Assembly: GCA_052168235.1 (NCBI GenBank)
Contig: JBQLZK010000006.1
Location: 1-32,000 of the forward strand
Origin: Thainema sp.
Lineage (GTDB): Bacteria > Cyanobacteriota > Cyanobacteriia > Phormidesmidales > Phormidesmidaceae
Length of the DNA: 32,000 bases
Direction: 5' to 3'
The first letter of the stretch is position 1; every line of letters begins with the position of its first letter. A program made the position numbers and the translations under genes. Of this stretch, positions 25,268-31,920 are shown piece by piece. Below the pieces are notes generated by a model. That model did no database searches. It worked only from the letters and a program-made list of their open reading frames with translations, and was not told the origin of the DNA.

Positions 25268-27352
25268 TTATTTCGCTCGCATAGCTGATCGCACAAGTTT
25301 CTTTTGGTACTCATCAGCATCTTTGCGCCACACAACTCGATGCCCCCGCAATTCTGCACCATGCTCAGCTAAACAGTGCTGCCAGCCACGGCGGTCATAG
25401 ATCGCTTTGACATCGTCGAGCAGTCCCCACTTACCCTCCTGCTGGCTGAGTCGGGCAAACTTATCATAGTTTGGATAGTCGGCAGTAATCAGTTGCTCTT
25501 TCTGATGCAGCAGTGGCGGATTATCGAGGTTGTAATCGCGGTATCGCACCTGCAAATCCCGTAGACCAACTGCCATGCTGGTGTGGAGAGCCGGATGGGG
25601 TTCATCGTCGAAGTCTGGATAGAACAGGTAGGTGATCTGAGGCTTTTGCAAATGGAATTTGACGACCGTTGCTGCATCCGGTCGGCCAATGGTGCGGGAG
25701 GCACAACCTTCATAGAGGCGGAGCAGTGGATCAAGCTGTTCAAGGGCTGAGACATGAATCCAGAGGGAATTAGGACGCTGTTGACCAATAGGACTTTGAC
25801 GGCAGCGTTCGGCCAGGATTTCTGTCCGACCTAAGCTCATCAGCATTAGATCAGCGGCAGTACAGGCTTGCTGATAGTTGCCGAAGAGGGCTTTAATATC
25901 GTGCTGGACAGTGGCAGACAAATCCCTGAACTTAGGGCGTTTACCGAAGTGGCTCAAGGCCAAGTACACCATTAGGTCATTACGGCGCTTATCTGCGATC
26001 GCATCCCATTCACTCACATCAGTCGCTTGTAAGACGAGCTTGAACGCTCGTTTGATGCTGCCAAACTGAGACTGGATGGGACTAAAGGCGTCGGAGCCTA
26101 GCTCATCGGCAGCCGGTAAACGACCCCGCTCGGTGTAAAAGTCCATCAGCGGCTGGAGTTGGTCGCGGTATTGCTCAAACTTGCTGACCTTGAGGCGAAT
26201 CTGAGGCGCTTTGGCGCGGGAACGGAAGCGGGAGGCACGAAACGACTCGGCCTGGGCTTCATCTCGGAAGACGAAGTAAATGCCAAGCGCCACAGGAATC
26301 GCGTCTACGCCAAGAACTTGGTCGATATAGAATTTCAGTTCTTCCTGCTCGTAGTATTTCTGAAAGGTGTTGCGGCTGGTGATGATGCCGTCGCCATAGG
26401 CAATGACGCCCCGTGTCCGGTCGTCAATTAGGACTTGAGCTGCAACGATGAGAACGGTTTCAGCCAGTTGCCAGGCATTAATCAGCGCTGCTCGGCGTTC
26501 GGCGGTATCTTCAATCACATTGATCACATAGCCGAGATTGACCACCTGAGCAGAAACCTGGGGCTGATCGGGGCGAAAGTAAGGATCCCAGCCGCTGCTG
26601 ATGTGGCCGAGTCGCTGGATATACTCGATATCGGCTCCATGACCGCAACCGTAGTCGAAGTAGGTGGTGCCGGAAGGAAATAACCCAGCTTCAACGGCTA
26701 GGCGAACGGGTTTAGAAGCCGTGACACGTGCGATCGCAGCTTTGTGGCGTTGAATTTTGGGTTTAGGATTGGCTCTGGCTGACTGGATCGCACAAGCTAG
26801 GGCGTGATCATGAATTTCAATTCCTCTTTGGATCAGACGCTGTGCCCAGGCATCGGTAAAGCCAATTTCGCGAGATTTATCCAGTAAACCCAGTGCTTCC
26901 TGCTGACGGGTTAAGTACTGAAACTTGTCGTAGTGAGGATAGTCTGGGGTGACAAAGGCTTCCTTGCGGTGCAGAACAGGTGGATTTTGGGTATCGGCAT
27001 AGGAGCGTGACCAAACCTGCCCAGTTACCAAATCGACTTGTAGGCTGTGGGCGAGAGCAGGATGGGGATCGTCGTCGAAGTCAGGATAGGTGAGGTAAGA
27101 CAGCTTGAGTTGGTCAAACTGGAACTTGATTAGTGTAACGTTGAGCTGTTCCCACTGAGCTGATAAGCGGGTTCGAGCGGCTTGTTCGTAGGCTTGCAGG
27201 TAGGGGTGCAGCGCTGTTAAGGCTGAGTGATGGACATAGAGCGCGGTTGGCAAAAGTTTACCGATAGTGCTCTGCTGGCAGTGCTGTTTGATATCGTGAA
27301 GCGAAACAGCATTTAGATTGGGAAGTTGCAGGGACGATGCGATCGCAGTCAT
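25268..27352 (-). CDS. Large SAM-methyltransferase-like protein resembling the 'DNA phosphorothioation-associated putative methyltransferase' family, with a duplicated flanking domain
   Basis: Central Rossmann motif I: TYFDYGCGHGADIEYIQRLGHISSGWDP. A ~150-aa domain is present twice (nt 26804-27253 and 25328-25774), sharing YPDFDD(D/E)PHPAL, NPP(V/L)LH(R/Q)KE and DYP(H/N)YDKF. ATG at 27352 (MTAIASS) is preferred over TTG at 27418. Family assignment is from memory of TIGR04096-type proteins. Confidence 0.8.
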   Translation of the reverse strand: MTAIASSLQLPNLNAVSLHDIKQHCQQSTIGKLLPTALYVHHSALTALHPYLQAYEQAARTRLSAQWEQLNVTLIKFQFDQLKLSYLTYPDFDDDPHPALAHSLQVDLVTGQVWSRSYADTQNPPVLHRKEAFVTPDYPHYDKFQYLTRQQEALGLLDKSREIGFTDAWAQRLIQRGIEIHDHALACAIQSARANPKPKIQRHKAAIARVTASKPVRLAVEAGLFPSGTTYFDYGCGHGADIEYIQRLGHISSGWDPYFRPDQPQVSAQVVNLGYVINVIEDTAERRAALINAWQLAETVLIVAAQVLIDDRTRGVIAYGDGIITSRNTFQKYYEQEELKFYIDQVLGVDAIPVALGIYFVFRDEAQAESFRASRFRSRAKAPQIRLKVSKFEQYRDQLQPLMDFYTERGRLPAADELGSDAFSPIQSQFGSIKRAFKLVLQATDVSEWDAIADKRRNDLMVYLALSHFGKRPKFRDLSATVQHDIKALFGNYQQACTAADLMLMSLGRTEILAERCRQSPIGQQRPNSLWIHVSALEQLDPLLRLYEGCASRTIGRPDAATVVKFHLQKPQITYLFYPDFDDEPHPALHTSMAVGLRDLQVRYRDYNLDNPPLLHQKEQLITADYPNYDKFARLSQQEGKWGLLDDVKAIYDRRGWQHCLAEHGAELRGHRVVWRKDADEYQKKLVRSAMRAK

Positions 27353-27603
27353 AATGCGGCACCCGTACAGGTTTCTTCTCACCGTACCGAGTTGAGATGA
27401 GGTTGTACTACCCCACAAATAGGGTGCAGTTCTACAAAGACCTACTAGTGCAAGCGTTTGCCACTATATATAGAAAGTTTAGTAGACTAGATACACGTTG
27501 AAGCACTAATGGTGGTTAGATAAAGATTTGCTGCCAGTGGCTTACAATCTTCAAAGTTTTATATTAAATCCGTAATTTAAGCAGATGTTATCGGACGATT
27601 GCT

Positions 27604-28818
27604 ATGCGAACGTTGAGCCTATTTGAAGAAGACCGTCTTACGCTGCCGAAAAGTATTGAGCTAACGGTGGAGTCATTGACGCAATATGGACAACTGTATC
27701 GGCACTGGGCGATCGCATTTTCGGGCGGCAAGGATAGCACCGCTACGGTCACGCTGCTGGCACATCTGCTGGAAACAGGGCGTGTTCCTCAACCAGAAAG
27801 TATTACAGTGCTCTATGCCGATACGCGACAGGAGTTGCCGCCGCTGCACTCGGCAGCAATGAAAATTTTAGATGAGCTGCGCGATCGCGGCATGGATACG
27901 CGGGTGGTGTTGCCCAAGTTAGATCATCGCTATTTCGTGTATATGCTGGGGCGCGGAGTGCCGCCGCCGTCGAATACGTTTCGCTGGTGTACTCCGAAGC
28001 TGAAAGTGATGAGCATGGAGCGGGAACTGGAAACGCTGCGGCAGGAGCGGGGTGAGAAGTTCCTGATGCTGACGGGCGTGCGGATTGGTGAAAGTGCGGC
28101 TCGGGATCAGCGGATCGCCGTGAGCTGCACCAAGGATGGTGGAGAATGCGGCCAGGGCTGGTTTCAGCACACGTCGGCCAATGCTGTGGCAGATACGCTA
28201 GCACCGATTGTTCACTGGCGAGTGTGCCATGTCTGGGACTGGCTGATGTTTGAGGCTCCGATGCTGGGCTTTTCGACGGATGCGATCGCAAAAGTCTACG
28301 GTCAGGATACGGCAGAGGGAGAAGAACCGCTGAATGCTCGCACGGGCTGCATCGGCTGTCCCCTAGTGCAAAAAGATGCAGCACTGGATCGGGTGGTGGC
28401 TCAGCCGGAGTGGTCATACCTAGCACCGCTGCAAAAGTTGAGACCCCTGTACTGGGAAATTAAGAAACCTCAGTATCGCCATCGCAAGCATGGGGAAGTG
28501 AAAAAAGACGGTACGCTTGCCGCCAAGCAAAATCGGCTAGGGCCACTGCATATGGACGCACGGCGCTGGATGCTGGAGCAGGTGTTGGCGATTCAGGCTG
28601 AGGTGAATCAGGCGGCTGAGCGGTTGGAAATGCCGAAGATTGACCTGATTAATGAGGAAGAATTAGCACGAATCGAAGAGCTGATTGCGGCAAATACCTA
28701 TCCAGAAAAATGGAGCGGTGACGACCCTAGAGGAGATGAATGGTTTGAGGAGATTCTGCCGGATGGAAGCGTGCAGCCGTTGCTATTTGGGAAATTAGAT
28801 AGCATGAGTGATAGCTGA
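27604..28818 (+). CDS. dndC: DndC-like PAPS-reductase/PP-loop ATP pyrophosphatase family protein (short, 404 aa)
   Basis: PP-loop AFSGGKDS (27721-27738), YADTRQELPP, GRGVPPPSNTFRWCTPKLK, and a Cys set including GCIGCP (Cys codons at 28348 and 28357), in the same order as in DndC. It is shorter than the ~500-aa DndC I remember. The gene symbol is provisional. Confidence 0.78.
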   Translation: MRTLSLFEEDRLTLPKSIELTVESLTQYGQLYRHWAIAFSGGKDSTATVTLLAHLLETGRVPQPESITVLYADTRQELPPLHSAAMKILDELRDRGMDTRVVLPKLDHRYFVYMLGRGVPPPSNTFRWCTPKLKVMSMERELETLRQERGEKFLMLTGVRIGESAARDQRIAVSCTKDGGECGQGWFQHTSANAVADTLAPIVHWRVCHVWDWLMFEAPMLGFSTDAIAKVYGQDTAEGEEPLNARTGCIGCPLVQKDAALDRVVAQPEWSYLAPLQKLRPLYWEIKKPQYRHRKHGEVKKDGTLAAKQNRLGPLHMDARRWMLEQVLAIQAEVNQAAERLEMPKIDLINEEELARIEELIAANTYPEKWSGDDPRGDEWFEEILPDGSVQPLLFGKLDSMSDS

Positions 28819-31277: not shown

Positions 31278-31293
31278 AGGTGTAAAACTCGCT

Positions 31294-31920
31294 CTAGGCA
31301 GAAACGGTTAGTGGTCGGTTGTCTGCGGTCATGCGGTGCAAAATGCCCATAATCAGATCCAGACGGTCGATGTAATAGTCTTTGGTGTCAATGCAGGCGG
31401 TTGTTTGCTGTAGGGTGAGAAATTTCCACTGATTACCCGTAGTGACAGCTCCATAAATGGTGTCAATTGCGTTTTCATTGGTTTGATTAAAGCGCTGAGC
31501 TGCTAGCATTGCCGCTAAACACTGAGCTAGTCCACCTTTGATATTCTCGTTTTTGGCTTCAAATACGATCGCAATCGGAGCTTGTATATAAAGCTGCTGG
31601 CTTGACAAGCTAATGATAAAGTCGCAGAACCCATTTAAACCTTGGGCTGTGTCCACATTAAATTCCACCCCAGAAAACAAACTGATGCGATCGCAACTCA
31701 TGCGTTTCAGTTCAATCAACATCGGGGCAATCAGCATCTCTGAACGAGCTTTTTCGGTATTGATGGAGAGGGCTAGTGTGGTGCTGTATTCCAGAGAACT
31801 CACAAAGGCAGGATTGAGTTCAAGTGCCAAATTTTGACGTGAAAACAAATCTAGACTGCTCTGAATGGCAAGGCCAAAGCTTTTTTCTAGCTGCGGCAGC
31901 GTAAAGTCTTTGTAAGACAT
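31294..31920 (-). CDS. Hypothetical protein with PD-(D/E)XK-like motif, upstream partner of dndE-like gene
   Basis: 208 aa. GFCDFIIS...PIAIVFEAKNENIKGGLAQCLAAMLAAQ has the D...(E)xK spacing of PD-(D/E)XK nucleases. It ends 16 nt before the dndE-like ATG on the same strand. Confidence 0.6.
   Translation of the reverse strand: MSYKDFTLPQLEKSFGLAIQSSLDLFSRQNLALELNPAFVSSLEYSTTLALSINTEKARSEMLIAPMLIELKRMSCDRISLFSGVEFNVDTAQGLNGFCDFIISLSSQQLYIQAPIAIVFEAKNENIKGGLAQCLAAMLAAQRFNQTNENAIDTIYGAVTTGNQWKFLTLQQTTACIDTKDYYIDRLDLIMGILHRMTADNRPLTVSA

Follow-up and report, generated by a model that had tools for sequence, protein, structure and literature searches.

Does a gene for a DndC-like enzyme that converges on dndE, with nuclease genes between the two and a methyltransferase-like gene diverging from it, make up a new and minimal DNA phosphorothioation system, or is it what is left of a larger one? 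The question is raised by positions 25268 to 31920 of a 32,000-nucleotide stretch of the cyanobacterium Thainema sp. (contig JBQLZK010000006.1, positions 1 to 32,000; referred to here as the window). An interpretation made from the letters alone (here, the sequence-only reading) had proposed a self-contained minimal Dnd-type system, in which the methyltransferase-like protein would recognize the site and the nuclease and HEPN proteins would act as effectors. That proposal is contradicted by a remnant of dndD near dndE, by intact relatives of the locus, and by visible erosion. We consider it probable, on comparative sequence grounds, that the locus is a composite Dnd island of Leptolyngbya-like cyanobacteria in eroded form and not a new minimal system.

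Sequence beyond the window was taken from Logan contig L001 (19,758 bp), which is 100% identical to window positions 21861 to 32000 and extends 9,618 bp further, so that 41.6 kb of this genome was examined in total. The 130-aa protein previously read as DndE-like is DndE, with 126.6 bits on TIGR03184 (curated cutoff, 71.85) and 147 bits on PF08870 over positions 1 to 111 of 111. A full-length DndD ABC ATPase is not present beside it; solely a C-terminal remnant of 110 codons is encoded, corresponding to DndD residues ∼546 to 658 (L001 positions 9348 to 9677, located by tblastn with true DndD proteins) and lying directly upstream of a PD-(D/E)XK nuclease gene. The remnant is 70 to 85% identical to the true DndD proteins, themselves scoring 641 bits on TIGR03185, and has no ATG, GTG, or TTG start that would yield more than 33 aa. 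Because its last 19 residues fall inside the window, the earlier statement that no DndA, DndB, or DndD is in view holds for intact genes only. Similarly, the thought that a canonical dnd cluster might begin just past position 32,000 is borne out as far as the dndD fragment; dndC, dndB, and a cysteine desulfurase gene were found neither in the 9.6 kb beyond the window nor elsewhere in it (tblastn with DndB; Pfam on large open reading frames [ORFs] across the 41.6 kb). No DndC reaching the TIGR03183 cutoff (290.4 bits) is encoded in the window or the 9.6 kb beyond, nor did any DndC-like sequence besides the 404-aa protein turn up there; the true DndC of related loci scores 662 bits. Searching by tblastn with SspB (DUF4007), SspC, and SspD matched nothing on L001, and for the remainder of the window the check was by Pfam on large ORFs. 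DndB is optional, and DndB and DndA/IscS may be encoded elsewhere in a genome. With DndC absent and DndD truncated, canonical phosphorothioate writing from this locus has probably been lost, which would leave DndE an orphan; the scanning core formed by DndD and DndE is considered to be indispensable (PMC10853773).

The features of the island that lie within the window are as follows:

22760..22832, plus strand: tRNA-Val(TAC) gene (ARAGORN), immediately 5' of the first gene of the island, which it probably bounds on the left
22850..23413, plus strand: c2, a 187-aa protein
23438..23887, minus strand: HicA toxin (23438 to 23635) and DUF1902/HicB-like antitoxin (23645 to 23887), identified by Pfam on L001; inserted cargo
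24048..25235, minus strand: HARE-HTH plus RiboL-PSP HEPN gene, starting 32 nt downstream of the methyltransferase gene and inactivated by a nonsense codon
25268..27352, minus strand: TIGR04096 methyltransferase-like protein, 694 aa from ATG (NCBIfam)
27353..27603, no strand: 251-bp intergenic region from which the methyltransferase and DndC-like genes diverge, GC 0.41
27604..28818, plus strand: DndC-like PP-loop enzyme, 404 aa, with SGGKDS, FRWCTPKLK, and GCIGCP motifs; phrog_12882
28808..29482, plus strand: Uma2-family nuclease, 224 aa from GTG or 216 aa from ATG at 28832
29493..30890, plus strand: Uma2-domain fusion, 465 aa, with PF05685 at residues 89 to 242
30885..31277, minus strand: DndE, 130 aa, with a 6-bp overlap with the end of the Uma2 fusion
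31294..31920, minus strand: stand-alone PD-(D/E)XK nuclease, 208 aa, 16 nt upstream of DndE and between dndD and dndE
31939..32000, minus strand: 3' end of truncated dndD (31942 to 32000, last 19 residues; stop codon, 31939 to 31941), continuing past the window

These ORFs and the 32-nt, 251-bp, 10-nt, 6-bp, and 16-nt intervals agree with the sequence-only reading. The 11-nt overlap that it placed between the DndC-like gene and the first Uma2 gene holds only with the GTG start; an independent gene call uses the ATG at 28832, with which the overlap disappears.

The arrangement occurs in intact form in relatives. We compared 163 related loci, comprising 80 genome loci retrieved with the TIGR04096 protein and 80 metagenome loci plus three contigs retrieved with the 404-aa protein, and restricted neighbor counts to sufficiently flanked loci (44 for TIGR04096; 22 or 16 for the DndC-like gene). 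In Leptolyngbya ohadii (L083, NKFP01000006), genes for TIGR04096, the DndC-like enzyme, and a HARE-HTH protein are met by converging genes for DndE, DndD, DndC, a 125-aa protein, and DndB. A dndC-dndD-dndE set converges on the DndC-like gene, with the methyltransferase gene divergent, in L004 (Nodosilinea sp. FACHB-131), L013, and L022; L006 has the layout of L004 except for a split dndD, and a search there did not find dndC. Full dndC-dndD-dndE sets also stand beside the DndC-like gene in L085, L089, L100, and L110, with no methyltransferase gene in L085. The DndC and DndD proteins of the intact relatives (662 and 641 bits) are both above the curated cutoffs. The window shares backbone and gene order with L083 and L004, at 65 to 90% protein identity, and differs in that their full dndC and dndD (and, in L083, dndB and HARE-HTH) are here deleted or replaced by Uma2 genes. 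Since the intact relatives combine the shared arrangement with a complete dnd(B)CDE, the window locus would be a deletion derivative.

Across the survey, the methyltransferase gene is divergent from the DndC-like gene at 15 of 22 loci, and DndE lies downstream of the DndC-like gene at 11 of 16. A full dndD stands by the DndC-like gene at 8 of 16 loci, dndD fragments alone at 4 of 16, and no dnd gene at all at 3 of 16. The DndC-like and methyltransferase genes are both intact without dndCDE in L097, L102, and L109. L097 and L109 are without DndE, so the DndC-like enzyme and DndE are not an obligate pair. As the partial or absent dnd genes show, erosion is common in this island family, and varied, incomplete configurations of cyanobacterial dnd clusters have been described (PMC8569181). 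Two metagenome loci (L120 and L121) display extreme island decay, with scattered, stop-bearing DndE, DndD, and DndC-like fragments around an intact methyltransferase/DndC-like pair.

The far side of the dnd operon is conserved as well. At many loci it carries c14 (a small ORF), an HTH_3 regulator, an SBD-HNH nuclease, and an SBD-only gene, and at some loci a PbeABCD-like module is also present, made up of a 152-aa gene, an ATPase of 690 aa, and a TIGR04095 protein of 703 aa. On L001, the dndD remnant is followed by c14, an HTH_3 regulator, a 113-aa membrane protein, an SBD-HNH nuclease, and an SBD-only paralogue and, further along, by an MNT-type nucleotidyltransferase and the two small ORFs that flank it (seemingly a toxin-antitoxin module), a truncated TIGR04095 protein, and housekeeping genes. 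The SBD-HNH protein, of the "phosphorothioated DNA-binding restriction endonuclease" type, scores 113 bits, below the cutoff of 180. The TIGR04095 protein (PbeA-type HKD-helicase) reaches 444.5 bits against a cutoff of 600, and its match ends at model position 321 of 451; its counterpart in L097 and L109 is 703 aa long. Neither the ATPase (690 aa) nor the 152-aa partner of those two loci is found here, and L001 holds no full PbeABCD/TIGR04095 module. The segment with SBD-HNH, its SBD-only paralogue, and HTH_3 (L001 6788 to 8329) is conserved beside dndCDE in L085, L089, and L091, and L107 shows HTH_3 alone where its contig ends; the reader nuclease SBD-HNH thus adjoins the phosphorothioate-writing dndCDE operon.

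In the reconstruction that we favor, the intact island would consist of a phosphorothioate-writing dnd(B)CDE operon that converges on the gene for a phrog_12882 PP-loop enzyme, with the TIGR04096 gene divergent from the latter and usually a small HARE-HTH gene after it. On its far side, the island would carry the HTH_3 regulator, the phosphorothioate-reading SBD-HNH nuclease, and a PbeABCD-type module, the whole being inserted beside tRNA-Val. A ∼5-kb deletion from just after c14 to dndD codon ∼545 would have taken away dndC, dndB if there was one, and dndD up to that codon. Furthermore, the PbeA-type nuclease would have been truncated, its partners replaced by a toxin-antitoxin pair, and the HARE-HTH-HEPN gene struck by a nonsense codon.

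A parallel to this reduced form is found in Leptolyngbya sp. O-77 (AP017367, L082), where the DndC-like gene also converges on DndE and a 107-aa C-terminal remnant of DndD, followed by c14, HTH_3, and an HNH nuclease. Unlike the window, O-77 lacks both TIGR04096, with a ribosomal-protein operon upstream, and the PD-(D/E)XK gene; its DndC-like gene and DndE are not separated by Uma2 genes (one such gene is found at a distance of ∼8.5 kb), and its remnant has a TTG start. The dndD remnants here and in O-77 (L082 11703 to 12026) begin at the same residue (PKHRLSAGEKQ, ∼aa 545), which shortly precedes a HIP1 site within the LAIA codons; each comes after c14, and neither contains a stop. No direct repeat that would explain the recurrent breakpoint was present in the intact locus L089. 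The window DndC-like protein is 89% identical to that of L085, which has full dndCDE, versus 80% to that of O-77, suggesting independent deletions or segment exchange. On L001, c14 (109 aa, 9018 to 9347) is in frame with the remnant (9348 to 9680) across a single TAA, which is not so in O-77. The possibility that the remnant is translated as a C-terminal extension of c14 was rejected, given that the two are in frame here only across that TAA and are out of frame in O-77.

The 404-aa enzyme, described earlier as DndC-like, is related to DndC and yet distinct from it. It scores 145 bits on TIGR03183, below the cutoff, and matches phrog_12882 (phage PAPS [3'-phosphoadenosine-5'-phosphosulfate] reductase) over essentially its full length (E value of 2e-152, 508.7 bits, positions 10 to 403 of 404). 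Matches to SspD (35 bits) and BrxP (50 bits) are much weaker. Its identity to proteins of Rhizobium phage RR1-A, several Pseudomonas phages, and Microcystis phage Mae-JY29 is 50 to 54%. In the alignment, the PP-loop, the WCT cysteine (Cys129), and the GCxGC cysteines (Cys249/252) are common to DndC and the 404-aa enzyme, and SGGKDS is invariant among cyanobacterial, phage, and DndC sequences; the phrog_12882-type enzymes have their own SCxKDGxECGQGW insert and are without the C-terminal ∼130 aa of DndC. By these profile scores and alignments, the enzyme is a DndC relative in a separate family, not DndC, and it is plausibly active. Searching the Protein Data Bank (PDB) with its sequence returned nothing meaningful.

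In each of the three phages inspected, the phrog_12882 gene and a DNA methylase gene share 4 nt. Metagenomic relatives at 58 to 64% identity sit amid genes of replication and integration (AAA_25, DnaB, integrase, DUF5131, and RusA), and neither DndE or DndD (0 of 14 loci) nor TIGR04096 lies near these noncyanobacterial relatives. A general pairing of phrog_12882-like genes with DNA methylases was considered and rejected, the metagenomic neighbor ORFs having yielded too few methylase-domain matches (4 among 115). In some Leptolyngbya, the DndC-like enzyme is longer, at ∼495 aa (P0179 and P0190). P0179 bears a HARE-HTH domain (PF05066) that matches the separate HARE-HTH gene trailing the DndC-like gene in ∼17 loci; no HARE-HTH hit was recorded for P0190. 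Evasion of Dnd is reportedly aided by a phage PAPS reductase (Piel 2022, cited in PMC13551039), which may or may not belong to phrog_12882. Because a phage PAPS reductase is reported to defeat Dnd, a host-resident orthologue beside dnd offers a concrete experimental lead.

The 694-aa protein, rightly read as methyltransferase-like, matches TIGR04096 ([quoted passage not shown]) at 841 bits over model positions 1 to 478 of 478, far above the cutoff of 150. The family has more than 3,000 homologues, and the best matches are mostly cyanobacterial. An AlphaFold2 model (mean predicted local distance difference test [pLDDT] score of 84.4) has four domains: an N-terminal domain (residues 14 to 188), a Rossmann S-adenosylmethionine (SAM)-dependent methyltransferase core (210 to 375), a helical domain, and a C-terminal domain. 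The N- and C-terminal domains (∼170 aa) are repeats of one another (41% identity, E value of 9e-38); the duplicated domain carries invariant YPDFDxxPHP and NPPxLHxKE motifs and has no recognizable fold. The DYGCGxGxD motif is invariant in 58 homologues, and no DNA-methylase catalytic motif follows strand 4. A PDB search with the methyltransferase profile gave nothing meaningful, and no functional study of TIGR04096 or its product name was found in the literature. The model and the motif lend indirect support to a predicted SAM-dependent methyltransferase.

Phosphorothioate genes occur within 6 to 10 kb at 15 of the 44 well-flanked TIGR04096 loci (Dnd at 5, SspBCD type at 9, and partial matches alone at 1); Dnd and Ssp genes are absent at the other 29. 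In L002, L012, L020, L021, L035, L040, L079, and L081, TIGR04096 adjoins SspB (DUF4007), a 1165-aa SspC-like ATPase, and a 268-aa SspD-like enzyme rather than dnd. Outside cyanobacteria, a TIGR04096-family gene follows dndABCDE in Rhodococcus (PMC8416521). The commonest neighbor of TIGR04096 is a homologue of c2, present at 13 of the 44 loci and usually directly downstream and convergent; in the window, c2 is parted from the methyltransferase gene by the HicAB and HEPN insertions. This protein has no Pfam, NCBIfam, or PHROG match and, despite an AlphaFold2 model with a pLDDT of 87, no PDB match by fold or by profile search. It contains invariant Cys, His, Glu, and Asp residues. One UniRef entry names a homologue "Peptidase M15," a designation that is unverified, and at NCBI a protein from a Thainema sp. 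metagenome-assembled genome is 100% identical to c2. The long ORF at 22637 to 23413 in the mechanical ORF list runs through tRNA-Val and is not a gene.

The nuclease genes were correctly recognized in the sequence-only reading: the two Uma2 genes score 91.8 bits (224 aa) and 91.3 bits (465 aa) on PF05685 (gathering score, 27), and the PD-(D/E)XK gene matches PADLOC PDLC01472 at an E value of 1e-49. As conserved partners of a modification system, however, they do not hold up. Uma2 homologues (60 to 77% identity) directly follow the DndC-like gene in four related loci (L111, L112, L113, and L115). The 465-aa fusion has no full-length counterpart in the 163 related loci and is, by that comparison, lineage specific. 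The PD-(D/E)XK gene (∼70% identity) likewise lies between dndD and dndE in three (L088, L092, and L093); dndD beside it is full length in L088, while the contigs of L092 and L093 end too soon to show it. The wHTH-HEPN gene is located where it had been placed, but it is not intact: an in-frame TAG stands at codon 40 (25118 to 25116), where the intact 379-aa homologue of L089 has Glu (44% identity, E value of 9e-109), and its HEPN domain (HEPN_RiboL-PSP, PF18735) scores 24.8 bits, under the gathering score of 28.4. In L089, L090, and L100, the HARE-HTH-HEPN gene has another place, with the DndC-like gene on one side and DndE on the other. At least one nuclease is found in 80% of dnd neighborhoods/taxa, including HKD-helicase, wHTH(SBD)-HNH, HARE-HTH fusions, HEPN, and stand-alone restriction endonuclease folds (PMC10853773). 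The Uma2 and PD-(D/E)XK genes thus appear to be island cargo of a kind already described around dnd genes. Because the nuclease set agrees with these published neighborhoods, it lends no support to dedicated wiring to a minimal system.

HIP1 (GCGATCGC) has 38 sites in the window versus 0.76 expected, and nine of them fall within 25268 to 31920, in keeping with the earlier view of long residence in cyanobacteria. The low-GC segment with HicAB (GC 0.42) and the HEPN pseudogene (GC 0.33) has none.

Several observations weigh against an eroded Dnd island. O-77 shares the reduced layout and the start residue of the remnant, and the reduced form may therefore be maintained. Stops are absent from DndE, from the DndC-like gene, and from the dndD remnant, which have ratios of nonsynonymous to synonymous substitution (dN/dS) of 0.04 to 0.12 (DndE, 0.07 to 0.12; DndC-like, 0.04 to 0.09; remnant, 0.09 with a dS of 1.5), and thus show no visible loss of function; with synonymous sites saturated and the deletion undatable, these ratios are uninformative on function after the deletion. 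Fold and sequence searches with TIGR04096 found generic class I SAM-dependent methyltransferases alone, as weak matches, and the methylase matches by the metagenomic phrog_12882-like loci are few (2 C5 and 2 N6/N4). It is also possible that DndC/DndD or Ssp proteins encoded outside the 41.6 kb searched act in trans. The first two of these observations feed the proposal that the DndC-like enzyme, DndE, and TIGR04096 are a working minimal phosphorothioation system without DndC and DndD, with Uma2, PD-(D/E)XK, and HEPN as effectors: the DndC-like enzyme retains the PP-loop and cysteines common with DndC, it and DndE are intact with low dN/dS, and the remnant boundary in O-77 is identical. We nevertheless judge this proposal highly improbable. 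Well-preserved layouts include dndD and usually dndC, O-77 has no methyltransferase gene, and L097 and L109 keep the methyltransferase and DndC-like enzyme without DndE; the Uma2 fusion is unique to the locus, the HEPN gene is a pseudogene, DndD-DndE is considered an indispensable scanning core (PMC10853773), and the 58 to 64% relatives from outside cyanobacteria have phage and mobile-element genes around them and neither DndE nor DndD nearby. Supply of DndC, DndD, and a desulfurase in trans by a second dnd, pbe, or ssp cluster, with DndE and the accessory pair still in use, would account for purifying selection on the surviving genes. Such a source has parallels in the co-occurrence of dnd and ssp clusters in some cyanobacterial genomes (PMC12914056), the two TIGR04096 paralogues of Leptolyngbya iicbica, and another DndD/CxC-like ATPase ∼8.7 kb from the O-77 relic. 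We hold it to be quite unlikely, considering that no such cluster was found in the 41.6 kb, that DndE coevolves with its own adjacent ATPase and is less likely to be used in trans (PMC10853773), and that a nuclease of the phosphorothioate-reading SBD-HNH type lies nearby.

Two further explanations concern the genes that survive rather than those that were lost. TIGR04096 might be unrelated to phosphorothioation and form with c2 an independent module (e.g., a modification enzyme and an effector) that is merely collected in defense islands. The 29 of 44 loci without a Dnd or Ssp gene and the frequent, directly convergent c2 would fit such a module, and methyltransferases beside phosphorothioate genes may act independently (PMC12914056). 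However, Dnd or Ssp genes at 15 of 44 loci are far above expectation for systems present in ∼3 to 4% of genomes each (PMC12914056), the association covers two unrelated machineries (Dnd and SspBCD) and another phylum (Rhodococcus, PMC8416521), and the methyltransferase gene is divergently paired with the DndC-like gene at most loci (15 of 22); we therefore regard this explanation as unlikely. Somewhat less doubtful, although still tentative, is the idea that phrog_12882 and TIGR04096, often with HARE-HTH, form a self-sufficient module that cyanobacteria domesticated from phages, that outlives dndBCD, and that places its own mark, be it a DndD-free phosphorothioate or another sulfur or methyl modification. 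Within an eroded Dnd island, a narrower claim can be made with more assurance: the pair is intact, conserved, and persistent without dndCDE (L097, L102, and L109), and we infer that it is probably a separable two-enzyme module acting on DNA. The PP-loop/Fe-S enzyme would most likely perform ATP-dependent sulfur or adenylate chemistry and the methyltransferase a SAM-dependent step, with its duplicated end domains binding DNA.

Compared with known systems, the locus resembles canonical DndABCDE (dnd of Streptomyces lividans and dpt of Salmonella) in its true DndE, in the dndD fragment upstream of dndE, and in the DndC-related PP-loop enzyme nearby. It departs from them in lacking a DndC above threshold and DndA and DndB, in a startless dndD of 110 codons, and in the PD-(D/E)XK gene between dndD and dndE. 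Like the phage loci with phrog_12882 (Pseudomonas phage Dobby, Rhizobium phage RR1-A, and Microcystis phage Mae-JY29), it encodes an enzyme of ∼400 aa with a methyltransferase gene adjacent; the phage partner is an ordinary DNA methylase with a 4-nt overlap, whereas here the partner is a divergent TIGR04096 gene and the setting is chromosomal and HIP1 bearing. The neighborhoods surveyed for PbeABCD and CxC-DndE (Rakesh, Aravind, and Krishnan 2024, PMC10853773) share TIGR04095/PbeA, wHTH(SBD)-HNH, HARE-HTH fusions, HEPN, and restriction endonuclease-fold genes with this island; TIGR04096, a second DndC-like enzyme, and Uma2 are not described in that survey, and here PbeA is truncated and PbeBCD is missing. 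With SspD and BrxP (Ssp and BREX type 4), the common element is the PAPS-reductase/PP-loop domain; unlike in those systems, there are no SspB/C or BrxC/Z/L genes.

The locus would accordingly be one more degraded member of a cyanobacterial Dnd island family whose variable, nuclease-rich layouts have already been described. For genome surveys, it matters that "DndC" annotations in these islands include a distinct phage-type family, which should not be counted as DndC. The phrog_12882 and TIGR04096 genes form a conserved, uncharacterized pair that persists without dndCDE, and the cultured Leptolyngbya sp. O-77 (relic) and L. ohadii (intact) provide a natural comparison.

The remaining 22 kb of the window encodes DnaE, SerRS, glycosyltransferases, a desaturase, and a separate C5-methylase/HNH pair. 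Two further ORFs, of 810 aa (15155 to 17587) and 303 aa (10683 to 11594), have no Pfam match at an E value of 1e-5. The pair, at 2207 to 4752, consists of a C5 cytosine DNA methylase (459 aa) overlapping a 391-aa HNH_2 protein; at a GC of ∼0.39 and with no HIP1 site, it looks like a separate, recently acquired restriction-modification pair beside dnaE.

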